A stretch of DNA of 41,043 nucleotides from a virus (Duplodnaviria; Caudoviricetes): positions 1-41,043 of the IMG/VR virus record IMGVR_UViG_3300020042_009526; one strand, given 5' to 3'. The position numbers and the translations under genes were made by a program. The notes beneath the pieces were generated by a model. It was not told the DNA's origin. It saw nothing but the letters and a program-made list of their open reading frames with translations, and ran no database searches. Shown in pieces: positions 9,227-41,043 of this stretch; the first letter of the stretch is position 1, and every line of letters begins with the position of its first letter.

Positions 9227-9693
9227 AAATGACAGTTAATATGAGTAAGAATCTTCAGCATATGTTGGATGCACATAATTCTGGAGAGGATTATGCAAGA
9301 AAATTTAAAAAATATATTCCTGTAGTTTTAGAGGAATTATCAGCTCGTGGAAAAACATGGGTAGAGAAATATCCACCGCCACCAGAGCCTAAAGGTAATG
9401 GATCACGATGGGTGCGAGGATTGGGATTGGTTTACTACAAAAAGGATGGGTCTATGAGTTTGTATGTACCATCTGAAAAGATGAATACAAAATGGCAAAT
9501 AGACAAAATTAGCAACATCAAATACTCACTAACGAATAGTGCATCATACAGTGGATTTGTGCAGGTGCATATATCTCAAATAGATGTACATCAAGGCACG
9601 GGATGGCTTACTGATAGGCTGATGATAGCGTATTTGAAAACAAATATAAAGAAGATGATACCTAACTTAATGCAGAAGATTCGGAGTATGTAA
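9223..9693 (+). CDS. Putative virion morphogenesis protein (HK97 gp10-like)
   Basis: ATGA-coupled to portal; LTNSASYSGFVQ-type motif; weak similarity only. Confidence 0.45.
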   Translation: MKMTVNMSKNLQHMLDAHNSGEDYARKFKKYIPVVLEELSARGKTWVEKYPPPPEPKGNGSRWVRGLGLVYYKKDGSMSLYVPSEKMNTKWQIDKISNIKYSLTNSASYSGFVQVHISQIDVHQGTGWLTDRLMIAYLKTNIKKMIPNLMQKIRSM

Positions 9694-10658: not shown

Positions 10659-10667
10659 GGAGGTTGT

Positions 10668-11246
10668 ATGGCGACTTGGACAGCACCGGTTAATGTTATT
10701 ACCGGAGATAATTTATCTTCAGCACTTTGGAATAACCAATTAGGCACAAACGGATCATTGCGTTATTTGTATGACAATTTAATTGAAGCACAAGCAGACA
10801 TTTTAAGCAGAAATGTTGTACTGCGTCGTACTACAAGTCTTACATTGGCAGCTGCTGGTAATTCGGATATTGCATTTGATGCAATCACAAACAATTACAC
10901 CAACGAACAACTTAATTTTCCAATTACTCCACCGGTAACGGCAATTCCATTTCCACAAGCTGGTATATACATGGTTAGTTTCACAAGTCGATATACCGTT
11001 GCATCTAATATTACGGTAAGATTTATAGTTACCAATGGCACTACGGCAATTGCACAACAGCATCAGCAAGCATATATTGCAGCCGGCAATGTCACTGTAT
11101 CAACAATGGTTACAATTGAGTCTAGTAGTTGTACCATGACAGTTAACGTGTTATCTTCAGCTGCTGGTACGTTTACGGCAGCTGCTGCAACAGGTACGGT
11201 TGATGCCAATATGCAATTACGGATAGTAAAGATTACGGGTCAATAA
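10668..11246 (+). CDS. Putative fibre/minor virion protein with C1q/TNF-like C-terminus
   Basis: MATWTAPV...TGDNLSSALWN minor-tail-type N-terminus; IAFDA...AGIYMVSF; RBS AAGGAGG. Confidence 0.55.
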   Translation: MATWTAPVNVITGDNLSSALWNNQLGTNGSLRYLYDNLIEAQADILSRNVVLRRTTSLTLAAAGNSDIAFDAITNNYTNEQLNFPITPPVTAIPFPQAGIYMVSFTSRYTVASNITVRFIVTNGTTAIAQQHQQAYIAAGNVTVSTMVTIESSSCTMTVNVLSSAAGTFTAAAATGTVDANMQLRIVKITGQ

Positions 11247-11746
11247 TGAATGACGAAATAATTACTGCATACGAATCAGCAAAGATTGCATTAGACGGAT
11301 TAAAAGCCATTACCGTATCATCATACTCTCGCAACGGCAAACTTATATCTGGATATAATAAACGTGGCAACACTGCAAGTAATCAAGTGCGCAAACCAAG
11401 TGTGCGTGGTGAGTTACCTGTACCAGAGCAAGTCATGTTTCCAGCACTGTATAAACGTGCAAGAATTAAGGCACGTCAAAAGTATGCAGTGTGGCCAAGT
11501 GCGTATGCAAGTGCATATTTGGTATCTCAATACGAGAAAATGGTTAAAGCACGTGGTGCAAAACCATATCGTGTCACTAAATCACTTGAATTGTGTGCCA
11601 TGGGTGTGCTATCGTATATTCAAGAGGGTAAATCTATTGATGCAATAGACTACCTAAAAAATGTCAATGAGTGGTTTAACGAGGAATGGGTTAGTACAGA
11701 TAAAGGAATGTTGCCTAAATCTGTATTAGTTAAGATAGGTGATTAA
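11246..11746 (+). CDS. Conserved phage protein (DUF5872-like)
   Basis: LYKRAR...KYAVWPSAYASAYLVSQY and EWFNEEWV motifs. Confidence 0.6.
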   Translation: MNDEIITAYESAKIALDGLKAITVSSYSRNGKLISGYNKRGNTASNQVRKPSVRGELPVPEQVMFPALYKRARIKARQKYAVWPSAYASAYLVSQYEKMVKARGAKPYRVTKSLELCAMGVLSYIQEGKSIDAIDYLKNVNEWFNEEWVSTDKGMLPKSVLVKIGD

Positions 11747-12627
11747 TGCCATATACTGAAAAACAAATAATTACTGCTGACTCACTCAACATGATTGTCA
11801 CGCGATTTGGATTATTTGACCAAGATGATGATGCAAATGGTTGCGATTATCGCAGTGAAAGCGATAATAAAAATCATGCTGGCAAGTGTTGCATGGAATG
11901 CATTTTTCAACGTGGTTCTGGATGTGCAATCGTCAGTGGCACTATTGAGCCAATGGGTGTTTGCCGTTTTTGGATTATTAGTGAAGATCGGTTAACAGAA
12001 AGCGAGTACGCAGATGGCAGCGAAGAAGAAGATGGCAATGGGCAAAGCACCGATGGGCAAAGCACCGATGGGCAAGTCGCCGATGGGCAAAGCACCAATG
12101 GGGTATATGAAACCAGCAAAAGCATCCCCTACCAAGAAGAAATAAAATCCATTAGCGATGATGGTGAAGTTTATCGTGGGTTAGGGGTTGTCTGGGGTGG
12201 TAAAGACTTGGTAGGTGATACATTTACCAAGTCTACCGAAGTTGGCAGTGAAAGACCATTCAAAGGAATGCCATTGTATTTTGACCATGCTCAAGGTGAA
12301 ATCAAAGATGCAATTGGCACGGTATTGGATGCAAATTCTGATGATAGTGGTATGTGGTTTGATTTCCAATTAAACAAACGCCACAAGTATGCGTCAAAGA
12401 TTAAGGAATTAATCAAAACAGGTGCGCTTGGTTTGTCTACCGGCGCAATCTCTCACTTGGTGACTAGAGATAGTGGTGAGCTAAAATGCTGGGTAATTGG
12501 TGAGCTTTCGCTTACGCCTACACCAGCAGAGCCACGCACGCTCATTCATAATACGCCAAAGGTAAATGCAGAGGCATCTGATGATGCGCAGTTACGGCGA
12601 CCAACCGTCATTATTTATAAGAGGTAG
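11746..12627 (+). CDS. HK97-type prohead protease with N-terminal Cys-rich (HiPIP-like) domain
   Basis: DLVGDTF, LYFDH, GLSTG and ELSLTPTPAEPR protease motifs; N-terminal CxxC-x7-C-x12-CxxW. Confidence 0.85.
   Translation: MPYTEKQIITADSLNMIVTRFGLFDQDDDANGCDYRSESDNKNHAGKCCMECIFQRGSGCAIVSGTIEPMGVCRFWIISEDRLTESEYADGSEEEDGNGQSTDGQSTDGQVADGQSTNGVYETSKSIPYQEEIKSISDDGEVYRGLGVVWGGKDLVGDTFTKSTEVGSERPFKGMPLYFDHAQGEIKDAIGTVLDANSDDSGMWFDFQLNKRHKYASKIKELIKTGALGLSTGAISHLVTRDSGELKCWVIGELSLTPTPAEPRTLIHNTPKVNAEASDDAQLRRPTVIIYKR
12038..12102 (+). repeat. 15-bp tandem repeat x4.3 encoding (D/N)GQST in the protease linker
   Basis: ATGGGCAAAGCACCG units at 12038, 12053, 12068 (variant) and 12083. Confidence 0.9.
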
Positions 12628-12632
12628 TTACA

Positions 12633-13775
12633 ATGTCGAATCCTGAAAACATTGTTGTAGATTATGCGCAATTGGCAAACGCCATTATGCCGTCATTGAA
12701 AAATGACATTCTCCAACAGATTCTCAACGATCCTATTACCGCACGTGCTGGAGTCATTTCGCCTGATGGTGGCACTGCGGATAAGAGTGTCAAAAACTTT
12801 CCTGACTTTTTGGCTGCCGTCATGCGCAATGACTCAAAGCGATTGTCGGAAGTGTATGCGACCAAAGCGCAAGTAGAATCAAACGGCACGCTTGGTGGTT
12901 ATCTTGTGCCACCTGAATTCGCTAACATGATTGATGGCTATGCCATTGAGGAAGCTATCATTCGTGGTGGTGCAACCGTTATCCGCACCAGCAATCCCGA
13001 ATACAAAGCACCACGGTACGACCAGACTGTTGCACCTGATGGATCGTCAGCATTCTTGGCTGGTGTAAAATTGTTTTGGACGGCAGAAGCTGGTAACATC
13101 ACTCAAACGCAAATGAAGTTTGAAATGATTGACTTGAAAGTAAACAAGCTTGGTGCGTATGTGCAAGTGACTTCAGAATTGTTGTCAGATGCACCTGCAT
13201 TAAGTTCAATGCTTTCTCGCCAATTTGGTCAAGCCAAAGCATGGTTTGAGGATTACAATTTCATCAATGGTAATGGTGTAGGTAAGCCATTGGGGATTTT
13301 GAATGCACCTGCCACCTATTCGGTGACTCGCCAAACGGCAAGTGATTTCACGTTGCTTGATGCCAAGAACATGATTGCACGTTTGCCCGCAGCTGCCATG
13401 GGTCGTGCGGTATTTATCATGCATCAATCGGTAATGCCTAAATTGTATAGCATGGCTGAAACCGGCAATTTTGTCACTTTCTTGCGTGACTTACAAGGTC
13501 GACCATCAACGCAATTGCTTGGTCACACTGTATTGTTTACGGAAAAAGTGCCGGTGCTTGGCACTGCTGGTGATGTGTTGTTGGTTGATCGTAGTGCATA
13601 CTACTTGCTTGATCGCCAAGATACCACTATCAGCACGAGTGATGCACCTGCATTCTTGACCGACATGATGACTTTGCGCATGACGGCACGCCTTGATGGG
13701 CAACCAGCATTGAAAGACAAAATCTTGCTTGCTGATGGTGCATATCAAGTTTCGCCGTTTATTAAGTTGAGCTAG
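12633..13775 (+). CDS. Major capsid protein (HK97 fold)
   Basis: GGYLVPPEF, WTAEAG, ELLSD, INGNGVGKPLGILN and RLDGQP motifs. Confidence 0.95.
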   Translation: MSNPENIVVDYAQLANAIMPSLKNDILQQILNDPITARAGVISPDGGTADKSVKNFPDFLAAVMRNDSKRLSEVYATKAQVESNGTLGGYLVPPEFANMIDGYAIEEAIIRGGATVIRTSNPEYKAPRYDQTVAPDGSSAFLAGVKLFWTAEAGNITQTQMKFEMIDLKVNKLGAYVQVTSELLSDAPALSSMLSRQFGQAKAWFEDYNFINGNGVGKPLGILNAPATYSVTRQTASDFTLLDAKNMIARLPAAAMGRAVFIMHQSVMPKLYSMAETGNFVTFLRDLQGRPSTQLLGHTVLFTEKVPVLGTAGDVLLVDRSAYYLLDRQDTTISTSDAPAFLTDMMTLRMTARLDGQPALKDKILLADGAYQVSPFIKLS

Positions 13776-15985: not shown

Positions 15986-15994
15986 GAGGTTGTC

Positions 15995-16928: not shown

Positions 16929-16938
16929 GGTAGGGGAT

Positions 16939-21591: not shown

Positions 21592-21592
21592 C

Positions 21593-22747: not shown

Positions 22748-22757
22748 GGAATGCCAT

Positions 22758-23577: not shown

Positions 23578-24179
23578 TTGATTACTCTGCCGTTTTTCCA
23601 TGCCCAAGTTTCTACTTCCTGTTTATTCCAGATTTGTTGATTTGGATACTTGATAATTGATGGTTTTGGGAATTCATTCAAGCGCAACCAATTGGTAATC
23701 GTTTGGTTTACTACGCCAAATGCGGTTACTACTTCCCTGCGATTGACTAACCACTTGCTAGACTTCTGCCGGCACTCATCGACCAATCGCAAAAACCGAG
23801 GATCTAGTACATCCCTGCGATTCCATTGAATATCTGCCATGCCACCAATTAGCCAATCCTTTATTTGCTGAATTGTGAAATAGCGTTTAGCACCACGAAT
23901 ATATCCATTCAATCCATGTGTCAAATAGTTTTCAATTTGTGTGCGATGCACTGCCATCATCGCAGCTAAATCATGTGCGCTTATATCGCTATCTTCAAGC
24001 GGTGTGTTCATGTTTAACTTTAGTCTACTGACTTGTGTGTACACACTATAGGTAGATCGTTTTAGTGTGTAGGCAATATCTCGCACTGACAATCCTGCTT
24101 GGTGCATCTTCTGCAACCAGAGCAATTCTTCTTCTTGCCAATTCCGATATGTGCGGTTTTTGTATCGTGGCTCACTCAT
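23559..24179 (-). CDS. Multi-HTH DNA-binding protein
   Basis: W..EE...L...GLSVRDIAYTLKRS HTH, a central HTH, and C-terminal AlpA-like TITNW...FPKP...W. Confidence 0.65.
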   Translation of the reverse strand: MSEPRYKNRTYRNWQEEELLWLQKMHQAGLSVRDIAYTLKRSTYSVYTQVSRLKLNMNTPLEDSDISAHDLAAMMAVHRTQIENYLTHGLNGYIRGAKRYFTIQQIKDWLIGGMADIQWNRRDVLDPRFLRLVDECRQKSSKWLVNRREVVTAFGVVNQTITNWLRLNEFPKPSIIKYPNQQIWNKQEVETWAWKNGRVIKWTDGA

Positions 24180-25419
24180 TGTTATACTCCATAATTCGTT
24201 TACCAATCCACTCTGCAACATTTACTGATACAGCGTTGCCTAATTGTTTGTATCTTTGGGTATCTTGTTGTCCATCAGTCCATCCATCGGGAAAGCCTTG
24301 CAATCGCTCACATTCTGTTGGTGTTAACCGTCGCACACCAACAAGTGGCACATTGTTACCACCTGTGCCCATTTTAGCCGATAGCGTTGGTACAATATCT
24401 TGATTATTTGATACACGAATAGGATCATAACCGTGTGATGCTTCCCAAAGTGTATTATCAACAATCAGCATTTGTGCGTGATGTGATGTAGTAGCTGGTT
24501 GTAATGCTTGCAATGCAAGTGACTTATCTATTTCCGTTAATGAAAATGTATTTGCCTTATCATCTTCTCGCATACTATACGTTATTGGAATTAACGTGCC
24601 GGTATCACCTGAATGTCGCATACCCTCTTTAGTAGTAATTGGATTAGATGATTTTGGAATACTAAATGAAATGTACTGATCTTGTGTAGCAGAAATAGTA
24701 AATGCACATTCATTGGATTCAAGATAGCCTAATCCGCCTGGTTTTGTTGCAACACCGCCTCGCTCTCCGGTTGGATTTCCACCATTTCTAAATTTCCAAC
24801 ACCAGCTACGTTTATCAGTGCATTCATCAGTGGGGCTGGTATTTTTTTCCCCCTTTTTTCGGCTCGTCGAATGATGCCTTGAGATGCTATTTTGCTCAAA
24901 TAATACTTTGGCAAAACTTGTTGTTCCAAAACTTGCGACAATGAACACTCTTTTTCGTCGCTGGGCCAATCCGAAATATTGAGAGTCAAACACTCGCCAG
25001 CCCACACCATACCCCCTGTTTGCCAGCCATTGAATGATGGTGGCAAAATCTTCTCCGCTTGCTGAAGAAAATAAACCTGGGACGTTTTCGATGACCACCC
25101 ATTTTGGCTCAATTTCGTCAATAATTCTTGCGAATTCAAACCAAAGTCCGGATCGTTTCCCATCCAATCCAGCACGCTTTCCTGCAACCGAAACGTCTTG
25201 ACATGGGAATCCTCCGGAAATAAGGTTAATTGTTCCTTTGGCATGATTACTTGCTCCAATCTTTTTTACATCATCATATAATTCGGCATCGGGAAATCGC
25301 TTGCGTAGCACCTTTTGTGCGTGTTTATCAATCTCGCACATACCAACAATATCCATACCAGCACGTAAAAACCCTAAATCAAATCCACCTATCCCACTAA
25401 ATAAGGATAATGCTTTCAT
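24172..25419 (-). CDS. DNA cytosine-C5 methyltransferase
   Basis: LFSGIGG, GGFPCQD, ENVPG, QRRKRVF, RRLTPTECERLQGFP and YKQLGNAV. Confidence 0.95.
   Translation of the reverse strand: MKALSLFSGIGGFDLGFLRAGMDIVGMCEIDKHAQKVLRKRFPDAELYDDVKKIGASNHAKGTINLISGGFPCQDVSVAGKRAGLDGKRSGLWFEFARIIDEIEPKWVVIENVPGLFSSASGEDFATIIQWLANRGYGVGWRVFDSQYFGLAQRRKRVFIVASFGTTSFAKVLFEQNSISRHHSTSRKKGEKNTSPTDECTDKRSWCWKFRNGGNPTGERGGVATKPGGLGYLESNECAFTISATQDQYISFSIPKSSNPITTKEGMRHSGDTGTLIPITYSMREDDKANTFSLTEIDKSLALQALQPATTSHHAQMLIVDNTLWEASHGYDPIRVSNNQDIVPTLSAKMGTGGNNVPLVGVRRLTPTECERLQGFPDGWTDGQQDTQRYKQLGNAVSVNVAEWIGKRIMEYNNE
24729..25259 (-). CDS. Nested alternative-frame ORF inside the C5 MTase (possible beta-subunit-like polypeptide)
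   Basis: 176 stop-free codons within the MTase gene; CSLSQVLE...KYYLS..A..GIIRRAEKRGK.IP..L recalled from overlapping ORFs of similar MTases. Confidence 0.6.
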   Translation of the reverse strand: MEQVIMPKEQLTLFPEDSHVKTFRLQESVLDWMGNDPDFGLNSQELLTKLSQNGWSSKTSQVYFLQQAEKILPPSFNGWQTGGMVWAGECLTLNISDWPSDEKECSLSQVLEQQVLPKYYLSKIASQGIIRRAEKRGKKIPAPLMNALINVAGVGNLEMVEIQPESEAVLQQNQAD

Positions 25420-25649
25420 TTATTATCCCCTAGCTGCACAATCGAATCTACATAGTACGAATCAAAAAACACGGTATTGGTTTCCTTTTTTACTATGTTG
25501 GCAGAGAACAAATTACCATTTGGTGTTCTAAAAGTGATTGTCGTTTTATTTTCACCAATCAATGGCAAAATAGATACAACTTCATCATCAATTTCAAAAC
25601 CAAACATACCATTTGATTGCTTTGCCACAATTCGCACTAGTTTAGCCAT
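25416..25649 (-). CDS. Hypothetical protein
   Basis: 77-aa ORF coupled to both neighbours; RBS AAGGA. Confidence 0.6.
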   Translation of the reverse strand: MAKLVRIVAKQSNGMFGFEIDDEVVSILPLIGENKTTITFRTPNGNLFSANIVKKETNTVFFDSYYVDSIVQLGDNK

Positions 25650-26178
25650 TGCATTTATCCTTACTAATCACAACACCATATTGTTCAAAATGTAATTTAA
25701 AATTACAAGAGTCATTGCCAAAATAGAAAAATGTTTGACCACGTGTGTTGCCGGTTGAAGCTCTGCTATTGGCATAAATGAATTTGATTCGATGATTTGT
25801 AAAACACATAGCAGAGGAATGTTTTAGCAATTTTTGATACCACGATGTATCAGTGCTGGAATTGACAACCATGATAATCTGTGTATCAACATCCATATTT
25901 GATGCATATGTAATAACAGTATCAACTGATTTATTGATTAATCCACGCTCGTATGGTGGATTACACCATACTGATTTTGCTTTTGGCCAATCCAATAAAA
26001 ATGCATCATCATTTTTTGTAAAATATGATTTTGCTTGAATCAGTAAATTTGCTTCATGACAACTAAAAGGATCAAAATGGATTTCACCATCAAATACTTT
26101 TTTTGCTGATTCAATGTATTTTTTTGGCGTATACCAATCATTATCAACCGATTGGATTAAGTACTGTAATTTAGTCAT
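25642..26178 (-). CDS. Phage DNA N6-adenine methyltransferase
   Basis: DWYTP, FDPFS and VWCNPPY catalytic motif. Confidence 0.88.
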   Translation of the reverse strand: MTKLQYLIQSVDNDWYTPKKYIESAKKVFDGEIHFDPFSCHEANLLIQAKSYFTKNDDAFLLDWPKAKSVWCNPPYERGLINKSVDTVITYASNMDVDTQIIMVVNSSTDTSWYQKLLKHSSAMCFTNHRIKFIYANSRASTGNTRGQTFFYFGNDSCNFKLHFEQYGVVISKDKCNG

Positions 26179-30361: not shown

Positions 30362-30691
30362 TTATTTCTCCTTTTTAATCATTAGGTATCCATTTGATAC
30401 CTTTTCTTCACGCAGATTAGCAATAGCATTTGCCGTGTGCAATTCTCCATCACGCAACAATTGGGCAGTAAGCGAATCTAATCCATCCACATCATACGTG
30501 ACACGCTTCTTATCGGCAGTAATCATGGCAGTGCCAATGTGATCTGCTTTCACTTTCGTTACACCAAGCGATTTCATGTGATTCAATAGCTGATCACGCA
30601 ATCCCTGCTTTTGAATCTCCAACATCTTAATCTCTGACTCAATCTCGCCAATCTCACTAATCCATGCCGCAACATTTGTAATTTGTTCCAT
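30362..30691 (-). CDS. Hypothetical coiled-coil protein (Gp157/Gam-like region)
   Basis: IKMLEIQKQGLRDQLLNHMKSLGVTKV pattern; near the recombinase; RBS AAAGGTG. Confidence 0.5.
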   Translation of the reverse strand: MEQITNVAAWISEIGEIESEIKMLEIQKQGLRDQLLNHMKSLGVTKVKADHIGTAMITADKKRVTYDVDGLDSLTAQLLRDGELHTANAIANLREEKVSNGYLMIKKEK

Positions 30692-30703
30692 CGTCACACC
30701 TTT

Positions 30704-31486: not shown

Positions 31487-31619
31487 TATGCGTAGTTGCA
31501 ATCGCCTATAAGGCTTAAGAGAAAAAACAGAATCTCGCCGTATGCGTAATTGCAACCGCCTATAACGCCGATGATGATGCAATCATCACACATTCGCGCG
31601 TAGTGGCAACCGCCTATAA
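31487..31619. repeat. Three 22-25 bp direct repeats at exact 54-bp periodicity
   Basis: GCGTA(G/A)T(T/G)GCAA(T/C)CGCCTATAA with CGTA at 31491, 31545 and 31599; unique intervening sequences. Confidence 0.85.
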
Positions 31620-31800
31620 TGGTATATATATAATCTGATATGTGTTGTGATAGCAAAACACAATGAATATTGATACCTTTATTTGCATCAATTTTGCCTT
31701 ACTTTAGAATGTAGGCGGTAGGCATGGTATACCACTAATGATTATATTAGCTGTAGAGGCTTCTGAGGCCTCAGCTACCGCCTCAGCTACCGCCTCTACA

Positions 31801-31951
31801 GCTAAGCTATAGCACGTGCTGAGGCATCTACTGAGCTATGGGCTGAGCTATGGGCTGAGCTATGGGCTGAGCTATGGGCTGAGCTATGGGCTGAGCTGCA
31901 GAGGCATCTATAGAGGCGGTAGCTGAGGCTAAGCTATAGCACGTGCTGAGG
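31801..31951. repeat. 12-bp tandem array CTGAGCTATGGG x5.6 flanked by 24-bp direct repeats
   Basis: Array at 31831-31897; GCTAAGCTATAGCACGTGCTGAGG at 31801-31824 and 31928-31951. Confidence 0.92.
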
Positions 31952-31978
31952 TATCAGCTGAGGCGGTAGCCCATGCAT

Positions 31979-32030
31979 ATACATATAATAATGCCTCAGC
32001 TTTTAAAGGCTGAGGCATTATTATATGTAT
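31979..32030. repeat. 52-bp near-perfect palindrome (terminator or cruciform)
   Basis: 22-bp arms ATACATATAATAATGCCTCAGC/GCTGAGGCATTATTATATGTAT around TTTTAAAG. Confidence 0.9.
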
Positions 32031-32094
32031 TGTATTTATTTAATTCTGTTTTTTGTATAGTGATAAATAAAGCAGATAATTAATACTAATAGCT

Positions 32095-32661
32095 CTAACA
32101 GATCACACCTCTCAGCTCATTCTTAATAATCGAATTATCACGGTATGAATAATCTAATAATAGATATATCTGTAGTAATTCATTATATGTAATTGTAGGA
32201 TTGTATACAGAATATTCTATACGCTTATACTTAGCTGCTACCTCATTATTAGCAAAATAAGAGGCTAAGTATTGATAGTATGAGGCTAAGTTAATAATAT
32301 TCTTAGATAATACGTATCTAATACGCTTCTGCATATATACATCATAGCTAACTAATGATATTTTGCTATTATGCTTAATTGCCTTTAATAGCTCATCAGC
32401 CTCAGCAGTAGCCTCAGCCTTATTAGCTTTATTGTAATTAGATAATAGTGCTATATATGTAGCTGTATATTGCAATTCTACATTAGCCCATTGTATACAA
32501 TCATCTATCATAGAATTATCATAATAGGTAGTACTATCATTGTAGTGTGTAAAGCCTATATGAGTATAGTGATCCTCAATACGTGTAATCTTATTAGCTA
32601 ATTCTGTAGCATTATCATACGTAGCCTTATACAGGTTAATCAGTGTATTATTCATTATCAT
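32095..32661 (-). CDS. Hypothetical Tyr/Asn-rich protein
   Basis: Last ORF of the coupled chain; likely start 32655 (ATGAATAA overlap). Confidence 0.55.
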   Translation of the reverse strand: MIMNNTLINLYKATYDNATELANKITRIEDHYTHIGFTHYNDSTTYYDNSMIDDCIQWANVELQYTATYIALLSNYNKANKAEATAEADELLKAIKHNSKISLVSYDVYMQKRIRYVLSKNIINLASYYQYLASYFANNEVAAKYKRIEYSVYNPTITYNELLQIYLLLDYSYRDNSIIKNELRGVIC

Positions 32662-33328
32662 TAGCCTTAGTAATTAAATAAATTGTAAAATACTTGTATG
32701 AATTACCATATAGAATATTCATGTAATCATTCATACATTTATGATTACAATTATACGCTAGCGTATCAGTAAAATAGTTAGCATTCGCTTCAGCTACCTT
32801 GGCTGCATTGCCTTTTACTCTGTAGTATTTGGCTTTAGCTTTATACTTTTTATCTGCTTTAGCATCATACTTCTTATTCATAACTTCAGTTATATCTAAA
32901 GATAATAGATACAGATAATACGTATATGCGATAATATAGGCATCTGCAAAAGCCTCATCTTTTATATAAAGATGATTATTATAGCCTTTATTATGTAGCT
33001 CAGATAACACGCTATTGTATATAGGCGGCTTATTCATAACCATATAAGCATTCATAGATGAGGTTAATGTAGCCTCAGCAGATGCCTCAGCCCATGTAGT
33101 AAAAATATCTTTTTGATCATCAGTAAAGCTATAATTATTAGCCTCATAGTTATATGCCTTACTTGCCTCTAAAGCATAATCTTTAGCCTCAGCAGTTAGC
33201 TCATAGGTAGCTAATGCATCATACTCATAATTCATAGCATGATAATCAATAGCTGCTAATGCCTTAGCCTTTAATAATACTTCTCTATTAAAGGCTTGGC
33301 GTGATGTATTAATAATTTTATTTTGCAT
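32648..33328 (-). CDS. Hypothetical Ala/Tyr-rich protein
   Basis: 226-aa ORF with GAGG RBS; overlaps neighbours. Confidence 0.55.
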   Translation of the reverse strand: MQNKIINTSRQAFNREVLLKAKALAAIDYHAMNYEYDALATYELTAEAKDYALEASKAYNYEANNYSFTDDQKDIFTTWAEASAEATLTSSMNAYMVMNKPPIYNSVLSELHNKGYNNHLYIKDEAFADAYIIAYTYYLYLLSLDITEVMNKKYDAKADKKYKAKAKYYRVKGNAAKVAEANANYFTDTLAYNCNHKCMNDYMNILYGNSYKYFTIYLITKANDNE

Positions 33329-33551
33329 CTGTAGCCTCTGCTAACTTAATAATTAACTTCTGATTGTAGTAAAGGCTAGTATAGCCTACTAAATAAGCAA
33401 ATGCCTCTTTAATGCTATTCGCTACATAATGACTATTATCTACAAAATACTCATTATGATAGCCTACTGAATATCTACCATTGTATCTATTAACGTATAA
33501 GCCTACCGCCTCAGCACGTATTTTTAGATCTGATAATTTAATTCTCATCAT
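33318..33551 (-). CDS. Hypothetical protein
   Basis: 77-aa ORF with GAGG RBS; the most globular-looking ORF of the block. Confidence 0.55.
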   Translation of the reverse strand: MMRIKLSDLKIRAEAVGLYVNRYNGRYSVGYHNEYFVDNSHYVANSIKEAFAYLVGYTSLYYNQKLIIKLAEATDAK

Positions 33552-33560
33552 CTTATGCCT

Positions 33561-33905
33561 CTACTTCTTTTCATTCATTAATGAATAATATGCATAACTA
33601 TTCTTTATAGCCTCTAATGCCTCATAGGCTTTAGCTACCTCAGCCTCAGCCTCAGCTATTAATGCCTCAGCACGTGCTAATGCCTCCGCTTCTTTACTCA
33701 TTAAATTAGATTGTAATTCTAGCATAGTATATATATAGTATGCTTTATTCTTATCATCTGAGCTATTAAGGCATATAGAATGATATTTATATGCATTAAC
33801 TTTTGCATCATCAGCTACCTTAGCCCATGCCTTGGCGTTATTATTAGCCTCAGCTACTGCTACCTCTTTTACTAAAAAAGCTAGCTGCTTATAATCTTTA
33901 TTCAT
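33561..33905 (-). CDS. Hypothetical Ala/Glu/Lys-rich protein
   Basis: GAGG RBS and ATGAATAA overlap at 33898-33905. Confidence 0.55.
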   Translation of the reverse strand: MNKDYKQLAFLVKEVAVAEANNNAKAWAKVADDAKVNAYKYHSICLNSSDDKNKAYYIYTMLELQSNLMSKEAEALARAEALIAEAEAEVAKAYEALEAIKNSYAYYSLMNEKK

Positions 33906-34362
33906 TATTAGCCTCATTCATAATTGATACAGCATGATTACAAAAAACATTATACTCATCTAATGCCCATAGCTCATTTTTAGCATAAAGCATAATTACA
34001 GTATTAGTATACTCATTAGATGCCTTAGCACTAAAATATGTAGCATTAGCCCATGCCTCAGCCTTAGCCTCTAATGCCTTTATTACTCTGAGCTTAGCAT
34101 TAATCAATACCTTATAAGCATTAGCCCATGCCTCAGCCTCTTTATACTTAATATAATTACTTAGGTGTATATGCTTTAAGCCTACTTTACTATCAGCAGT
34201 ATACTCTAGCCCATTAACACTCAGATTGTATGTAGAGTAGCTAATAGTATAACTAATTAATGCCGCCTCAGCTATATCAGCCCATACTTTAGCATCAGCT
34301 ACCGCCTCTGCTAGTGTAATTTTAGTAGCCTTTATTACTTCACTAGTGTTATTACTCATCAT
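33898..34362 (-). CDS. Hypothetical Ala-rich protein
   Basis: GAGG RBS before ATGATG; frame open from 34371. Confidence 0.55.
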   Translation of the reverse strand: MMSNNTSEVIKATKITLAEAVADAKVWADIAEAALISYTISYSTYNLSVNGLEYTADSKVGLKHIHLSNYIKYKEAEAWANAYKVLINAKLRVIKALEAKAEAWANATYFSAKASNEYTNTVIMLYAKNELWALDEYNVFCNHAVSIMNEANNE

Positions 34363-34372
34363 ATGCCTCATT

Positions 34373-34951
34373 CTACTTTATGCAAATATTATAAATTAGC
34401 TCAGCCTTGGCTACCTCATACTCAGCCTCAGCTTTATCAGCCTTAGCCTTGGCTAATAACATTTTGGTATTAGCATGATGCTTTTGTGCATTATGTAATA
34501 AATACATAGCATCAGCATACGCTTCTCTACTCTCATCACTGTAGTGCGATTGTAGACTATTACTAGCCTCAGCCCATGCTGTATCATATGTATATACTAC
34601 CGCCTCTGAGGCTTTATTATTAGCATCTACCGCCTCTGCTAGCTTAATATCAGCCTCTAATAATAAGCCTTTTAGCTTCACTACTAACACTGATGCATCA
34701 TAAGCCTTAGTAATAGCATCTACTTCAGCTACCGCCTCATCTGTATCATTATTAAAGTTATTAATACAATCATGCCAAGCCTTGGTATAGTAGTAGTAGC
34801 TATCAATATCATTAGCAAATACATTAACCTTAGGCATATAAGCACGTGCTAATAATTTAATAGATGCCTCAGCCTCAGCCTTGGCTTTTTGGTATATTTT
34901 AGCCTCAGCCTCAGCCCATAGCTTAATCATTGCTTTATCTTGGTTATTCAT
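34373..34951 (-). CDS. Hypothetical Ala-rich protein
   Basis: GAGG RBS and ATGAATAA overlap at 34944-34951. Confidence 0.55.
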   Translation of the reverse strand: MNNQDKAMIKLWAEAEAKIYQKAKAEAEASIKLLARAYMPKVNVFANDIDSYYYYTKAWHDCINNFNNDTDEAVAEVDAITKAYDASVLVVKLKGLLLEADIKLAEAVDANNKASEAVVYTYDTAWAEASNSLQSHYSDESREAYADAMYLLHNAQKHHANTKMLLAKAKADKAEAEYEVAKAELIYNICIK

Positions 34952-35180
34952 ACGTAGCCTCATTATCTGTATAATACTCATTCAGTGCATCAGCTAATGC
35001 CTTATATTTGCTAATAGCTTTAGGCTTTACCATAAATACAGTAGCCTTAGCTGATGCCTTGGCTACAGCCTTAGCTGCTTTAGCCTTAGCCTTGGCTTTT
35101 CGCTTAATTGATACCTTAGCCTTAGCCTCTACCGCCTCTACCGCCTCAGCAGTAGCCTCATACTCATATGCATACATCAT
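34944..35180 (-). CDS. Hypothetical Ala/Lys-rich protein
   Basis: 78-aa ORF with GAGG RBS; AKAKAKA run. Confidence 0.5.
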   Translation of the reverse strand: MMYAYEYEATAEAVEAVEAKAKVSIKRKAKAKAKAAKAVAKASAKATVFMVKPKAISKYKALADALNEYYTDNEATYE

Positions 35181-35277
35181 GTAATAGCCTCATTCATATA
35201 ATAATAATTATTAGCCTCTATTGCCTCTGCTAAATCAGCCTCATCTAAGGCGGTATACAATTAAGATAATACATATG

Positions 35278-36009
35278 CTAGCCTTTACCATTAATAGCAA
35301 ATATGTAGGCATCTCTATGAGCTAATACTACCGCCTCATATTCTTTAGTAGTAGCGAATGTAGATGCATACCATTTAATGGTATTAGCCTCTGTATTAAT
35401 TCGCATACTCTCAGCTTCAGCTTCTGCTACCTTAGCCTCAGCCCATGCCTCTGCTATATTCTGTAATCCTTTATGCATAGATACAATCTTATTAGTAGTA
35501 GATTGTAAATAATTGCAATGGGCTAGTAATACAGCCTTTAGCTTTACAGTATAGGCATATTCTGCTAAGGCATCTATATATACATCTTTAGCAGTATGTA
35601 TAGCTGTATCAGTACTATTATTAAGCATACTGTAGGCTTCTGTAGCTAGGCTATTATAAGAGGCATCTATTACTAATACATTAGTAATTACATATGATGC
35701 ATACATAGATACAGCTACAGCATAAGAGGCTGCAGAGGCATCAGCTGATGCTAATTTATGCTTAATAGCCCATGCTTTTGCTAGTGTATCTTTAGCCTCT
35801 ACCGCCTCTGCTATGGGCCTCATATAATCATAAATATAATTACTTGGCTTTACATACCGCCTTTTCATAGCATCAGTAGCTAATTCAATATCTACCGCCT
35901 CAGTGTATAGGCTATATAATTTTGTGGCATATTCATAGATTGTATTATGATATACAGTGTATGCTAATGCCTTAGCCTTGGCTACCTTTAGCTCATATAA
36001 GTTATTCAT
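35278..36009 (-). CDS. Hypothetical Ala/Tyr-rich protein
   Basis: 243 aa; GAGGT RBS; ATGAATAA overlap at 36002-36009. Confidence 0.55.
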   Translation of the reverse strand: MNNLYELKVAKAKALAYTVYHNTIYEYATKLYSLYTEAVDIELATDAMKRRYVKPSNYIYDYMRPIAEAVEAKDTLAKAWAIKHKLASADASAASYAVAVSMYASYVITNVLVIDASYNSLATEAYSMLNNSTDTAIHTAKDVYIDALAEYAYTVKLKAVLLAHCNYLQSTTNKIVSMHKGLQNIAEAWAEAKVAEAEAESMRINTEANTIKWYASTFATTKEYEAVVLAHRDAYIFAINGKG

Positions 36010-37231
36010 TGCCTACCTCTTTATTGTAATAATTGTACAATTGCCTATAGTGATATAATCGTACCTTATATACAGAATTAGCTACCGCCTCAGCCTCTTT
36101 AGCCCATAGTAGGCTATAGGCATTATCTAACTTTTGACGTGTATCAAAAAATACAGCCCATACTTCAGCCTCAGCCTCATTAGCCTCATTCAATGCCTCA
36201 TTATACTTAGCCTTTGATACCTTGGCTATGGTAGCTGATGCCTCTACTATATCAGCCCATGCTTTAACCTTGGCTACCTCATCAGCTACCTCAGCCCATG
36301 CTGTATATGTAAATGATGCCTCTACCTTGGCTAAGCCTTTAGCATTAATATATCTGTTATATACTTCACTATGAAAAGCCTCAGCCTTAGCCTTAGCCTC
36401 AGCCCATATAATACTAAGAGTAGTATAATCTGTAGCCTCATCAGCCTTAGCATTAGCCTCAGCTACTACAGTATCATCTTTATAGCTCATTAGCTTCTCT
36501 AAGGCTTCATTATACTTACATAGTGATAATTCTAATGCCTCAATTGCCTCAGCCTTGGCTAACTTCACTGTATAATATGCCTCAGTGTAACGCTTAGCCT
36601 TAGCTGCTACAGTAGCTTCTTTTAGCTCAGCTAGCTCAGCCTCATACTTAGCTACCTCAGCCTTTACAGCCTCATACGCTACATTAATAGCATTCTGCTT
36701 TATAAATGCTTTATCTATAGCCTCAGATATATCTTTTGTAGTATTGATATATTCGCATAGATATATATCAAAATTGCGGTAGCTATATTCATACATCATA
36801 GCTTTATAGTAGCTTCTGCTAGCATCTACCGCCTTATACTTGGCATCAGCATATGCTTTAACTTTTACCTTTGAAGCCTCAGAGGCTTTAGATAAAATAT
36901 CATGCATAGGCTTTTTGTGCATATTAGATACAATCAACTTATACAGCATAGCCAAGGCTACCGCCTCTGATGCATTAATAATATATTGCATATGAGCATC
37001 TATATATATTACTTTTTTGATACCATGGGCTTTTACTAAGGCCTCATATAATTCTACCGCCTTTACAGCCTTAGCCTCTACTAACGATACTACAGCCCAC
37101 GCTTTAGCCTCAGCTGATGCCTTGGCTATGCTAGCCTCTGATACCTTGGCATTATCTACAATGCTTAAGTAGTAGCTTAATGCTTTACTAGCCTTAGCTG
37201 CAGATGCCTCTACCGTATTTTGTGTAATCAT
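36002..37231 (-). CDS. Hypothetical Ala/Glu/Lys-rich helical protein
   Basis: 409-aa stop-free frame; GAGAGG RBS. Confidence 0.6.
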   Translation of the reverse strand: MITQNTVEASAAKASKALSYYLSIVDNAKVSEASIAKASAEAKAWAVVSLVEAKAVKAVELYEALVKAHGIKKVIYIDAHMQYIINASEAVALAMLYKLIVSNMHKKPMHDILSKASEASKVKVKAYADAKYKAVDASRSYYKAMMYEYSYRNFDIYLCEYINTTKDISEAIDKAFIKQNAINVAYEAVKAEVAKYEAELAELKEATVAAKAKRYTEAYYTVKLAKAEAIEALELSLCKYNEALEKLMSYKDDTVVAEANAKADEATDYTTLSIIWAEAKAKAEAFHSEVYNRYINAKGLAKVEASFTYTAWAEVADEVAKVKAWADIVEASATIAKVSKAKYNEALNEANEAEAEVWAVFFDTRQKLDNAYSLLWAKEAEAVANSVYKVRLYHYRQLYNYYNKEVGNE

Positions 37232-37233
37232 TC

Positions 37234-37536
37234 TTAGCCTCTCATCTCTAATGTATCAGAATATACAGCCCATGCCTTGGCTAATGCCTCAGCAGATACA
37301 GCCTTAGCATTAAATGCCTCAGATACCGCCTTAGCCTTTATAGCTACTTGGCTATGTATCTTATAATCTACCTCAGCCCATGCCTCAGCTTTAGCTGATA
37401 CCGCCTTGGCTTTATTCGCTTCAGCCTCTACTACCATTTTTTGCATAGCCTCAGCTATTACAGATGCTAATACAGATGCTACATAGTGATTTGCTACAGA
37501 TGCTATGGTAGCCTTAATTGCCTTTTGCTTATTCAT
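37234..37536 (-). CDS. Hypothetical Ala-rich protein
   Basis: 100 aa; GAGAGG RBS. Confidence 0.55.
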   Translation of the reverse strand: MNKQKAIKATIASVANHYVASVLASVIAEAMQKMVVEAEANKAKAVSAKAEAWAEVDYKIHSQVAIKAKAVSEAFNAKAVSAEALAKAWAVYSDTLEMRG

Positions 37537-37553
37537 TGCTTAGCCTCTCATCT

Positions 37554-37583
37554 GCTGAGGTAGTAGCCTCTTACTACCTCAGC
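37554..37583. other. Perfect 12-bp intergenic hairpin
   Basis: GCTGAGGTAGTA/TACTACCTCAGC with a 6-nt loop. Confidence 0.75.
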
Positions 37584-37600
37584 CTCTTATACTATTACTA

Positions 37601-38872
37601 CTAACTATTAACCACTAAGTTATTATATACAGCCCATGCATTCGCTAGTGCTATATGAGCTGAGCTGATAGCCTCAGCACGATTAAATACTACAGCCTTA
37701 GTCTTAGCCTCAGCTAATGTAGCTACAGCCTCTGCTACCTCAGCCCATGCCTCAGCTATTGCCTTAGCCTCAGCCTCAGAAGCCTCAGCTACCGCCTTAG
37801 CCTCTGCTAGCATAGGCATATGCCAACCATTAAAGTTATAGCTTTTAAGGTTATTGATAGCTTGGATTAATTCAACCTCAGCCTTGGCTTTATTATTAGT
37901 AGCTAAAATTATCTCATCAGCTACCATAGCAGAAGCCTCTGTATTATCGTTAGCCTCATCTACCGCCTCAGCCTCTGAGGCTTTATGGTAGCTAAGATAA
38001 TTGATATGCTGATGCATATGGTTATATACCATATAGTGGTATTTTGCTACAGCTACCGCCTCTGTAATGCCTACAGTAAAAGCTTCATCATCTGTTGTAG
38101 TATCGTATATGTGTTCTATGAGGCTATAAAAGATTGTATATACCTCTACTGATAGCTCAGCCTTTAATGCATAGTGATAGTTATCGTAGCTGATAATATT
38201 AGCCCATGCCTTAATATCTGCTGTATACTCTGCATTATCTGCTAATTGTGTAACGCTTTTCGTTAGCTCAGCCCATGTATTAGCCTTGGCGGTAGCCTTG
38301 GCTTCTTTAGCCTTGGCTGATACTAAGGCTATTAATTCATTGTGAGATGCCTCAGCCTCTGTAGGATATTTAATGGTATACTTTTCTATATCACGGTAGA
38401 TTGTATTGTATACCGCCTCAGCCTCTAATACAGTAGCTTGGCACGAATTAACTGTATCTCTGAGATTGTAATTATCTAAGCTACCATAGCTATGTGTACC
38501 ATTTAAAGCATTCGCATATGTATCAGCCCATAGCTTAGCAGATGCCTTAGCCTTGGCTAATGCCTCTGATGCCTCTGCTAAGTTATACATCATATAGATA
38601 TACTTAGCCTTAAAAGCCTTATCTTTAGCTAGCAATAAGCCCATAGCTTCAGCCTCAGCCTCAGCCTTGGCTGCAATGCATTCAGTTATCTCTGCTGTAA
38701 TAGGATTACAGAGGTAGGTATTATATACTGTTGCCATGTAGCTATAGGCTAATAATGTAGCCTCAGCTTTTTTAGCCCATGCTACCATTGAAGCTTTTAC
38801 TACTTCAGCCTTAGCATTAGCCTTAGCTTCAGCCTCAGCCTCTAACACTTCAGCCCATGCTACCTTTACCAT
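37601..38872 (-). CDS. C-terminal part of a frameshifted ~940-aa Ala/Glu-rich protein
   Basis: No GAGAGG leader of the type seen at neighbouring starts; the frame continues upstream as AEAKAEAEA to ~39000. Confidence 0.55.
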   Translation of the reverse strand: MVKVAWAEVLEAEAEAKANAKAEVVKASMVAWAKKAEATLLAYSYMATVYNTYLCNPITAEITECIAAKAEAEAEAMGLLLAKDKAFKAKYIYMMYNLAEASEALAKAKASAKLWADTYANALNGTHSYGSLDNYNLRDTVNSCQATVLEAEAVYNTIYRDIEKYTIKYPTEAEASHNELIALVSAKAKEAKATAKANTWAELTKSVTQLADNAEYTADIKAWANIISYDNYHYALKAELSVEVYTIFYSLIEHIYDTTTDDEAFTVGITEAVAVAKYHYMVYNHMHQHINYLSYHKASEAEAVDEANDNTEASAMVADEIILATNNKAKAEVELIQAINNLKSYNFNGWHMPMLAEAKAVAEASEAEAKAIAEAWAEVAEAVATLAEAKTKAVVFNRAEAISSAHIALANAWAVYNNLVVNS

Positions 38873-38895
38873 ATCACTATAGATATAGTTAGCCT

Positions 38896-40428
38896 CTACC
38901 GCCTCAGCTTTAGCCTCAGAAGCCTCAGCCTCAGCCTTAGCCTCAGCTTCAGCCTTAGCCTCAGCCTCAGCTTCAGCCTTAGCCTCAGCTTCAGCCTTAG
39001 CTCAGCCTCAGCTTCAGCCTTAGCCTCAGCTTCTCTAATACGTGCTAATGCATCAGCCTTAGCCCATGCCTCAGCCTTGGCTTTACTATATTCGTTAGCA
39101 TCAAAATAGTTAGCATTAGCTATAGCACGTGCATTAGCCTCAGCCTCATCTACCTCAGCTATAGCACGTGCTACCGCCTCTTTACCTTTAGCCTTAGCCT
39201 CAGCTACCATAGCTACCTCAGCCTCAGCCCATGCCTCAGCACGTGCTGTATCAATATCAAAAGCCTCATCTTTATCAGTGGTAGCTACCTCTGCTACAGC
39301 TACCGCCTCAGCTACCTCAGCTACCTCAGCTGATGCCTCTACCGTATTAGCCTCTACCGCCTTAGCCTCATATGCTACAGCCTCTACTTCAGCCCATGCT
39401 TTTGACCACACTTCTTTACTTGCCTTACTTCTCTCAGCACGTGCTGTTTTAGCTGTAGCCTCAGCCTTTTCTACTTTAGCCTCTGCTACCGTGATACGAT
39501 ATACAGCAGATGCTAGCTTAACCTCATCAGCAGAAGCCTCAGCATAATACTTAATTAGCTCAGCCTCAGCTACTTCAGCCTTAGCATTAGCCTTGGCTAC
39601 ATTAGCCTTAGCCTCTTTTAGCTCAGCCTTGGCTTTTTTAAGGTTAGCTAATACGGTAGCTACTTTACAGCTATTGAGGTAGCTATAAGGATTATTCTGA
39701 AGCTCATCAGCCTTAGCCTTTAGCTCAGCTACCTTAGTAGATGCCTTTACAATATCCTGTTGAAGCTCATTCGCACGTACCATGCTATGCTTTACTTTAT
39801 CCTTTAGAGCTTTAGCCTCTACAGCCTCTACAGCCTCTACAGCTACAGCCTCTACAGCTACAGCCTCTACAGCTACCTCAGCCTCAGCTACCGCCTCTAC
39901 AGCTACAGCCTTAGCCTTGGCTACGTTAGCTACTGCTACCTCTACAGCATAGGCTGATATATCAGCCTCTACTGAGGTTTCTACCTCAGCCCAAAATAAC
40001 TTGCTCATCTTTACCTCTAATTCTGCTACCTTGGCTACTAGTGCCTCTACCTCATAGCGATATCTATCATTAGTCTTCATCTTGCTAGCCCATAGCTTAT
40101 TTTGCTCATACTGTTTTTTCTTGGCTATGGTATACATTCGCTTGGCTGATGCTAGCTTATTCTTAAAGCCTTTATGCGTATATTCGCTATAGCTGAGGCT
40201 ACTGTAGCTATGGGCTGATAGGTACATATCTTCAGCCTCATAGGCATCAGCTACCATAGCCTCATACTTCTTGGTTACCTTTGCTAATGCTGTCAATGCC
40301 TCATAGGCGGTAGTACGTGCTGAGGCGGTAGAGGCTTCATTAGCTACTGCTACCTTAAGCTCAGCCTTGGCTTCTGCTTGGCGAATGTAGTACATATTGA
40401 ATAGTGAAGTGTTGATTGTGATAGTCAT
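38896..40428 (-). CDS. N-terminal part of a frameshifted ~940-aa Ala/Glu/Val-rich protein
   Basis: GAGAGG RBS before ATG 40428; the LRLKLRL tail is the out-of-frame reading after a 1-bp loss near 39000. Confidence 0.6.
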   Translation of the reverse strand: MTITINTSLFNMYYIRQAEAKAELKVAVANEASTASARTTAYEALTALAKVTKKYEAMVADAYEAEDMYLSAHSYSSLSYSEYTHKGFKNKLASAKRMYTIAKKKQYEQNKLWASKMKTNDRYRYEVEALVAKVAELEVKMSKLFWAEVETSVEADISAYAVEVAVANVAKAKAVAVEAVAEAEVAVEAVAVEAVAVEAVEAVEAKALKDKVKHSMVRANELQQDIVKASTKVAELKAKADELQNNPYSYLNSCKVATVLANLKKAKAELKEAKANVAKANAKAEVAEAELIKYYAEASADEVKLASAVYRITVAEAKVEKAEATAKTARAERSKASKEVWSKAWAEVEAVAYEAKAVEANTVEASAEVAEVAEAVAVAEVATTDKDEAFDIDTARAEAWAEAEVAMVAEAKAKGKEAVARAIAEVDEAEANARAIANANYFDANEYSKAKAEAWAKADALARIREAEAKAEAEAELRLKLRLRLKLRLRLRLKLRLRLRLRLLRLKLRR

Positions 40429-40475
40429 GGTATTGTAGCCTCTCATTATAATCTGCTGATACTGTTATCTGATGC

Positions 40476-40973
40476 CTAGTAATTGCTATTCATTCGCTTG
40501 GCTGATACCTTTACATCAGAAGCTACCGTCTTAACCAAGGTAGCTACTACTGTATGCTTAGCTTCAGCCTTAAGCAGTGCTACCAAGGTAGCTGATGCAT
40601 CAGCCTTAGCCCATAGCTGATACCATGCTAAGCTTTTCGCATACTCTGATACCTTGGCAATAGCCTCTACAGCTAAGCTAGCTACCTCAGCTGATGCCTT
40701 GGCTAATGCCTCTGCTACAGCTACCTCTTTATTGCTACTGTAGCTGATGTAGCTGAGCTTGGCTACAATCTCTGCATCAATACCATAGCCTTTAGCATCT
40801 GCTACCTCTACTGACGCACTGATGAGATGAGCATAGTTAACAGTGTAATCAGCGTAGGCTTTTACAGCCTCTTTAGCCTCATACTTGGCTACCGTCTTAG
40901 CAATAGCCTCAGCCTTGGCGGTAGCCTTGGCATTCATTGCCTTAGCAGTGTTGAGTGTGTGTAACATAGTCAT
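40476..40973 (-). CDS. Hypothetical Ala/Lys-rich protein
   Basis: 165 aa; GAGAGG RBS; first visible ORF of the chain. Confidence 0.55.
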   Translation of the reverse strand: MTMLHTLNTAKAMNAKATAKAEAIAKTVAKYEAKEAVKAYADYTVNYAHLISASVEVADAKGYGIDAEIVAKLSYISYSSNKEVAVAEALAKASAEVASLAVEAIAKVSEYAKSLAWYQLWAKADASATLVALLKAEAKHTVVATLVKTVASDVKVSAKRMNSNY

Positions 40974-41043
40974 TGTAGTAACCTCTCATATAGTCAACTG
41001 TTGAATACTGTCATCAACATGGATAACTATAAGGCTTATATAT

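Follow-up and report, generated by a model that had tools for sequence, protein, structure and literature searches.

The virus record IMGVR_UViG_3300020042_009526 (hereafter the window, that is, the whole stretch of 41,043 nucleotides (nt) that was analysed) is the complete contig of a tailed phage and closes into a 41,211-nt circle. About 9,758 nt, or 24% of this circle, form a block written in a restricted DNA vocabulary, in which many short words are nearly missing from both strands, inside genes as well as in untranscribed DNA, and a few others are accumulated. The feature is real, extreme and family-wide: related phages carry, at the same position, restricted blocks of their own, with other genes and other words. 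It is tentatively proposed that the block is an exchangeable operon module, held to its own words by weak per-site selection from a sequence-selective, DNA-acting protein that is inherited together with the module.

A bounded block and its words

The block and the non-coding elements that lie at its ends are listed below, with the strand where it applies.

31660..41043: main part of the restricted-vocabulary block; it resumes in 94-206 after an unassembled gap of 261 nt
94..206: non-coding array of words at the far end of the block, upstream of its promoter
41026..41031, minus strand: -10 hexamer TATAGT of a sigma70-type promoter, a consensus match only, predicted to drive a 13-gene operon
31979..32030: 26-base-pair (bp) terminator-like hairpin, the stem of which is the commonest block word
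31748..31962: non-coding word arrays past the terminator, oriented both ways and containing 12-nt tandem units as well as inverted pairs
31487..31622: three 28-nt repeats with 54-nt spacing, just outside the inner edge

The original prediction, made from the letters alone, had placed the block at 31740..41043; the block itself is confirmed, whereas its left edge lies nearer 31660 and its right end runs on into 94-206. The outer edge is sharp: likeness to a relative (G005) resumes at 206/207, and at this same point the rare words return, with 38 in the 297 nt just past the edge. The scarcity of certain words, noted by eye, is borne out by counts on the plus strand (31740-41043 versus the rest of the window): GGA 6 versus 354, TCC 5 versus 310, GAC 5 versus 241, GTC 9 versus 251, CCGG 0 versus 61, GCGC 0 versus 80 and GATC 4 versus 72. 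Conversely, the favoured word GCCTCAGC is present 66 times on the plus and 6 times on the minus strand of the block, versus 3 and 0 in the rest; CCTCAGC has 88 copies in the block and 2 in the core of the genome. The patterns CTNAG and AGSCT, on both of which the window's words sit, occur 201 and 208 times in the block versus 25 and 13 in the core. The claim that the words lie almost all on one strand holds for five non-palindromic words (170 on the plus and 14 on the minus strand), but not in the left flank, where the counts are 6 and 7; GCACGTGC, which had been included among the polarised words, is a palindrome and hence has no polarity. Inside genes, each word is nearly always found in one reading frame.

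When a rare four-mer is defined as one with at most 15% of the count expected from base composition, 34 of the 136 strand-merged four-mers are rare in the block, with 0.365 bit per base lost at order 3, whereas three core stretches of equal length have one or two rare four-mers and lose 0.06-0.07 bit. Three-kb pieces of 91 unrelated viral loci (n = 349) have a median loss of 0.07 bit, and a single piece exceeds the 0.33-0.46 bit of the block; this piece (L082 1-3000) has 29 rare four-mers and a loss of 0.59 bit. Rare words occur 3 times per kb in the block versus 101 in the core; this set was defined on the block itself, and cross-validation holds, as rare words taken from one half and tested on the other gave 66 versus 887 expected, and 31 versus 460.

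The view that the constraint acts on DNA rather than protein is upheld by shuffles (n = 300) that keep the proteins and the codon usage of the block: 31 four-mers are absent from the block versus 7.8 in the shuffled sequences (maximum 13), and 385 five-mers versus 184 (maximum 207). Word depletion correlates with that of the reverse complement (r 0.5-0.6) and not with that of the reversed or the complemented word (about 0), indicating a ban on both strands. It also extends upstream of the promoter and past the terminator: with a rare-word set derived from genes alone, the untranscribed flanks contain 3 such words in 363 nt and 1 in 435 nt (about 67 expected in each), and the untranscribed block DNA of three relatives (G002, G005 and G006) behaves likewise with respect to the gene-derived set. 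Because it holds on both sides of the transcribed region, the word rule belongs to the DNA segment and not to the transcript.

The proteins follow the words, as had been predicted. Compared with the other proteins of the window, those of the block are poor in Gly (1.0 versus 6.3%), Pro (0.4 versus 3.6%) and Phe (1.2 versus 3.3%); Trp is followed by Ala in 32 of 37 cases (19 of them AWA), and ARA is written GCA CGT GCT in six of six. The block proteins contain 20% Ala and are predicted to be helical. Thirty-nine dipeptides cannot be encoded without a rare four-mer, and these are seen 16 times versus 94 expected; in the single homologue of open reading frame (ORF) 5, which is 54% identical and retains the restricted dipeptide set, one is seen versus 11.5 expected. 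Asp is never encoded by GAC (0 of 114) nor Val by GTC (0 of 214), and rare words are also gone from unique AT-rich stretches. Two other causes were rejected: avoidance of pyrimidine dimers, since the template strand of the window's block is rich in CT, TC and CC, and avoidance of Shine-Dalgarno motifs, since the coding strand has an excess of GAGG and TCC is missing as well.

Avoidance alone does not regenerate the favoured words. With the proteins fixed, core codon use and bans of the rare four- and five-mers, the four commonest words reach 7, 3, 1 and 0.7 copies, versus 63, 36, 25 and 22 observed; when every unseen five- and six-mer is banned under even codon use, they reach 29.5, 16, 11.5 and 6, whereas for the Trp word the bans suffice (19 versus 18). 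As bans regenerate under half of the four commonest words, a positive preference besides avoidance, or a graded avoidance, is indicated. Strain variants agree with ongoing avoidance of the rare words. Among the 40 listed of 518 variants, 27 fall in the block, of which one was dropped (a repeat with foreign depth); of the other 26, two create a rare word versus 7.4 expected (p ~0.01) and 18 are third-position changes. Among the 40 listed of 121 variants in a second set, 3 of 24 events create a rare word versus 8.7 expected (p ~0.01); both comparisons leave ancestral and derived states unassigned. In this second set 16 of 37 coding changes are at third positions, and therefore protein constraint is modest. 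A block-specific clustered mutation process was considered and rejected: among the rows listed in the read tables the counts were 22/66 versus 0/13, but genome pairs disagree, with clustered substitutions at 0.38 in the block versus 0.00-0.44 in six core stretches.

Different modules at the same genomic position

Nine related records (G001-G007, L133 and L135) reach the block region and are colinear with the window in the core; G003, G004, G005 and L135 end inside the block or at its edge, and five other capsid relatives (L062, L065-L068) yielded no block sequence. It had been anticipated that relatives would keep the words and lose the proteins. The proteins are indeed not kept, as tblastn with the 13 block proteins gave no match in any of the nine records, but neither are the words, and others are used instead. 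All nine relatives have a restricted block of their own, losing 0.10-0.45 bit versus at most 0.07-0.10 in matched core windows; the restriction is weak in G001, G007 and L135. Seven vocabularies were found in total, window included, and the top word of each block type is absent or rare in the other types. G005, for example, shares 84-94% DNA identity with the window in the common core, but in 3.1 kb of its block CCTCAGC is absent and its own top word is present in 50 copies.

Exchange of the module between close relatives was seen between G002 and L133/G004 and between G000 and G005. Phages with 97-98% identity in the core exchange their modules at the block edges. G002 is 95-98% identical to L133/G004 in the core next to the block, diverges from them at the block edges, and the likeness resumes beyond; the block type of L133/G004 is that of the more distant G003 (profile r 0.78, versus 0.21-0.25 with G002). 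The vocabularies exchanged in this way can be opposed: CCGG occurs 0.3 times per kb in the G002 block and 10.5 times per kb in that of L133.

A single family, whose members are about 75 residues long, was found in blocks that differ in vocabulary. In a search of about 100 proteins, a profile built on seven copies detects ORF 11 of the window with E 2.8e-7, versus 0.026 for the best decoy; in a leave-one-out test seven of eight copies were recovered, one of them weakly, and one L135 copy was missed. The word model of its own block fits best for seven of seven family copies tested, by small margins in four, which indicates that the genes are inherited and respelled. The model of ORF 11 has an alpha-beta-beta-beta-alpha fold (pLDDT 89). 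Foldseek found no match in the PDB, no solved relative was found by sequence, and only uncharacterised phage proteins match; structural comparison gave a weak match to the double-stranded RNA-binding domain (Z 4.2, rmsd 2.3, 49 residues aligned) and Z 3.4, rmsd 6.8 over 59 residues for lambda integrase, with an Atlas TM of 0.65 to an integrase cluster.

Several further observations were made on these blocks. The genes of the L133, G004 and G003 blocks are transcribed towards the amidase gene that flanks the block, and those of the window, G002, G005, G006 and G001 in the opposite direction. Repeated hairpins lie between genes in G001, L135, L133 and G003, and the window block has one promoter and one strong hairpin. 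At L133 6134-6691 a gene has been replaced, relative to G004, by a G002-type copy, which is AT-rich and lacks the main block word; it is a recent import between block types. Only 3 of 44 block proteins of the relatives have a PHROG match of any kind. The first gene of the CCCCGG-type block (L133 5023-5838, L118 6946-7698) matches a PHROG labelled RusA-like (E 1e-6 to 1e-8); its end appears DNA sliding clamp-like. A cysteine-rich DUF7227 protein is encoded inside the G007 block on its own strand (L137 6872-7552), and in G007 a stretch of about 6 kb (14404-20549), flanked by the methyltransferase and lysis genes, has no match to the window. At the inner edge, relatives, including G002, G003 and G006, have a related repeat, CGCG...GTAG, in three or four copies. 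The CGCG...GAGTAG form is found at 31487-31622 of the window, L116 8048-8233, L118 6481-6654, L124 6646-6808, L133 4630-4785 and near 6815, and L137 near 5570, 6660 and 7650; it lies at the inner block edge and, in relatives, after internal hairpins. This repeat is a candidate recombination, stop or binding site. Pattern scans for block words returned 61 and 30 viral loci, none in the window's vocabulary, and searches with two flanking genes returned no loci.

Origin of the constraint

The module-inherited protein proposed above would differ from module to module, each bringing its own sequence-selective DNA factor. This could be a nuclease or modifier aimed at host DNA and obliged to spare its own module or, alternatively, a protein that covers the module and protects it. 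If preference is graded over words of three to eight letters, it would both purge the disliked words and accumulate the favoured ones; with a very large population, even a minute cost at each site would be enough. A module-linked factor is favoured because the words travel with the module, are opposed between near-identical phages and include a positive preference; moreover, since relatives carry a different module with different words at this position, the spelling likely serves a module-tied, DNA-recognising factor and not simple hiding from restriction. The block operon is likely expressed first, as judged from its consensus host promoter, its terminator and its orphan genes, and the module may then be alone in the cell for a time. 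Somewhat more tentatively still, these interchangeable early modules might define self by spelling, each having been rewritten so as to be spared or covered by its own DNA-attacking or DNA-coating protein.

Several results weigh against this explanation. GGA/TCC is under-used in all ten blocks and the sets of rare five-mers overlap beyond chance in most block pairs (part of this overlap may stem from the simple expectation model), suggesting a shared, possibly host-set component. The 13 block proteins have no convincing match in PHROGs, Pfam or PADLOC, and hence no nuclease, modifier or DNA-binding domain was recognised among them. The ORF 11 family has no clear match among solved structures (best Z 4.3), and in L133 a G002-type copy of it lies within a G003-type vocabulary that the swap left unchanged, which makes this family an unpromising candidate for the determinant of the vocabulary. 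Finally, the block is not clearly doubled in contig depth: the ratio of block to core was 1.05, 0.87, 1.01 and 1.48 in four runs, although depth is not copy number and contigs cannot show ends.

A rival that is considered possible but rather unlikely is avoidance of host defences, the blocks being host-range cassettes purged of the short motifs (restriction half-sites, PAMs, toxin motifs) of one host lineage, with the favoured words as what remains after purging. The core of the window indeed avoids 20 palindromic patterns (13 seen versus about 374 expected, the patterns overlapping); because all cores strongly avoid palindromes, the hosts are probably rich in restriction systems. As further instances, 28 palindromic six-mers have no or one copy in the window core (204-31400), and GATC is seen 0 times versus 133 expected in the G001 core. 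The window block obeys the core's list, with 7 sites and 16 of 20 patterns absent, and the depleted component common to the blocks also fits this view. In murciaviruses, which have variable early regions, it is the sites in that region that determine restriction (PMC12455610), and the same is true of T5-like phages (PMC10644984). Nonetheless, the original prediction of a first-entering 'stealth leader' is supported in its constraint on duplex DNA but not, as stated, in the purging of defence sites: the density of avoided palindromes is 0.72/kb in the block versus 0.42/kb in the core, so the block is no cleaner. Avoided sites per kb are higher in the block than in its own core in 9 of 10 records (17.8 versus 1.7 in L133 and 21.1 versus 0.8 in G004; G006 is the exception), a measure that favours the core since the patterns were chosen for rarity there. 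CCSGG is nearly absent from all ten cores and abundant in three blocks (26 versus 2 in L133, 28 versus 0 in G004). A general preference of blocks for core-avoided words was not found, and it is true for particular words in G002, G003, G004, G006 and L133. Defence avoidance is further opposed by the failure of bans to regenerate the favoured words, by the opposed vocabularies on near-identical cores (the CCGG densities of G002 and L133) and by the first regions of T5, SPO1 and T7, which have 0-2 rare four-mers and lose 0.04-0.06 bit, versus 34 and 0.365.

Less probable is copying inside the module, in which slippage, template switching and short gene conversion would spread terminator and flank repeats and lineages would drift without selection on words. 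The commonest word is the terminator stem in the window and in several relatives, L133 and G004 differ by microsatellite runs and by in-gene changes that complete the block's palindrome, strain variants include word-to-word swaps, and repeated 14-20-mers exceed the expectation of order-4 and order-5 Markov models; an order-6 model, however, nearly explains repeats up to 16 nt. It is also opposed by the lack of rare words in unique stretches with no template, GAC and GTC codons included, by their avoidance in strain variants, and by the clustered substitutions, which core stretches have as well.

The other proposal of the original prediction, a track of oriented sites serving a nicking enzyme or a DNA-pulling translocase, is very improbable: the strand polarity and the excess of CCTCAGC speak for it, but the polarity is tied to the reading frame and disappears in the left flank, the genes run the other way in L133, G004 and G003, several relatives' words are palindromic, and such a track has no need to ban 34 other words. 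Equally improbable, and already largely refuted, is a bias at the protein or RNA level, through helices rich in alanine, the choice of codons or features of the mRNA, or else an artefact of assembly, for which the alanine-rich, predicted helical proteins and a fold-back piece at the contig start could be quoted, since shuffles keeping proteins and codon use fail to reproduce the pattern, untranscribed DNA is covered, an independent contig joins the block to the amidase gene, and seven runs have contigs that align along it.

Operon, genome and comparison with known systems

The block contains 13 tandem ORFs, all on the minus strand, between the sigma70-type consensus promoter, which straddles the contig end, and the 26-bp hairpin; the hexamer TTGACA lies 17 nt beyond TATAGT, just outside the window, at L103 1136-1141.

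40476..40973, minus strand: ORF 1, 165 amino acids (aa), an orphan with one weak match (E 0.002)
38896..40446, minus strand: ORF 2, 516 aa, with a C-terminal LRLKLR tail from 6-nt units, frame shifted
37601..38872, minus strand: ORF 3, 423 aa, an orphan
37234..37536, minus strand: ORF 4, 100 aa
36002..37231, minus strand: ORF 5, 409 aa, predicted all-helical (pLDDT 55, low)
35278..36009, minus strand: ORF 6, 243 aa
34944..35180, minus strand: ORF 7, 78 aa
34373..34981, minus strand: ORF 8, 202 aa
33898..34371, minus strand: ORF 9, 157 aa, weakly similar to ORF 10
33561..33917, minus strand: ORF 10, 118 aa
33318..33551, minus strand: ORF 11, 77 aa, of the sole family found across blocks of differing vocabulary
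32648..33328, minus strand: ORF 12, 226 aa
32095..32661, minus strand: ORF 13, 188 aa

ORF 2 and ORF 3 are one base out of frame with each other, with a run of 6-nt units near 39000 and several indels in one strain; they possibly act as a switch by which slippage yields either one long protein or two shorter ones. A Pfam match of ORF 8 to Peptidase_A17 was taken as chance, and none of 17 proteins matched a known defence family in PADLOC.

The following features lie outside the block.

1..93: 877-969 in inverted orientation, letter for letter; probably a fold-back chimera artefact at the contig start
504..1022, plus strand: amidase/endolysin, the first core gene past the outer block edge and the anchor for relatives
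5702..13775, plus strand: packaging and head module (terS, terL of TIGR01630, portal, protease, HK97-type capsid)
24172..26178, minus strand: C5-cytosine and N6-adenine DNA methyltransferase genes, in the core and not in the block
30362..30697, minus strand: weak Gp157-like gene, on the inner side the last core gene kept in relatives

The circle is closed by the independent contig L103, which leads from the block interior through the 261-nt gap to window position 94 and the amidase. TerL passes TIGR01630, and the portal is HK97-like, below cut-off; other core genes encode a dCTP deaminase, an O-like initiator and a DnaC-like loader. Four genes of the presumed tail region (16897-23222; 1087, 476, 384 and 154 aa) are conserved in relatives, and none has a PHROG match, nor the three longest a Pfam match. 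No cultured relative was found: megablast with the block gave no match, and the nearest cultured terminase is 28% identical. Block k-mers are present in 23 of 24 listed sequencing runs, half or more of them in three; of the seven runs with contigs along the block, six are freshwater or lake samples and one is labelled fungus metagenome. A host search over genomes gave one 1.7-kb contig with 54% terminase identity, in a genome with no further phage match and no photosynthetic reaction-centre match. The core's avoided palindromes may resemble the site lists of filamentous cyanobacteria or Herpetosiphon.

In layout the block resembles the pre-early, first-step-transfer DNA of T5 and BF23, but it cannot be filed as one. 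The latter (PMC10644984; bioRxiv 10.1101/866236) is about 9.7 kb long, with a host-type promoter, mostly unknown genes and inner-edge repeats; the window block is similar in size, promoter and gene content, and a repeat-rich non-coding stretch lies at its inner edge (31487-31622 and 31748-32030). It differs in that the T5 segment has no rare four-mer and loses 0.06 bit, in that the whole segment is swapped between near-identical phages, and in that no A1, A2 or dmp family match was found among the 13 block proteins in PHROGs or Pfam, although remote homology is possible. Close relatives differ in this block, as they do in the early region of Murciavirus and T7-like phages, and here too the region could determine host range; single sites matter, however, in Murciavirus under type I restriction (PMC12455610), unlike the block-wide word rule described here. 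The T7 early region is not word-restricted (1 rare four-mer, 0.05 bit) and, in contrast to T7-like phages, no RNA polymerase gene was found among 60 scanned proteins of the window phage. The host-takeover module in the SPO1 terminal repeat is likewise a cluster of about 10 kb of small early genes, but has 2 rare four-mers inside versus 2-3 outside and loses 0.04-0.05 bit. As described in PMC2839356, the hyperplastic regions of T4-type phages contain PeSL promoter-terminator cassettes between genes; there too orphan genes lie between sigma70-like promoters and hairpins and are shuffled as modules, but in the window block the words of the cassette extend into the genes and change the amino-acid usage, and there is a single promoter and a single terminator. 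Plasmid leading regions, as described in PMC13478746, are first-entering DNA of distinct composition and not consistently palindrome-poor; their signal lies in GC content and host-adapted codons, whereas here there is a two-strand ban that includes non-coding DNA. A literature search, which left most subscription journals outside, found no prior description of word-restricted early blocks.

Selection on short words is usually mild and genome-wide, whereas here a quarter of the four-letter words have been removed from one bounded module; the new elements are colinear relatives with non-homologous blocks, swapping at the block edges, and a shared family respelled in each block. Because near-identical phages carry differently worded modules, the family represents a natural experiment that can separate host-imposed from self-imposed constraint. 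The finding is relevant to an unsettled question, namely how phages can destroy the DNA of the host and yet spare their own first-expressed DNA, for which self-sparing has already been proposed in the case of T5 A1 (bioRxiv 10.1101/866236), and it offers one reason for the orphan look of early genes; composition-based binning would split such modules from their genomes. If self is indeed defined by spelling, the vocabulary of a module would be a readout of the specificity of its protein, and phages would possess a composition-based discrimination between self and non-self.

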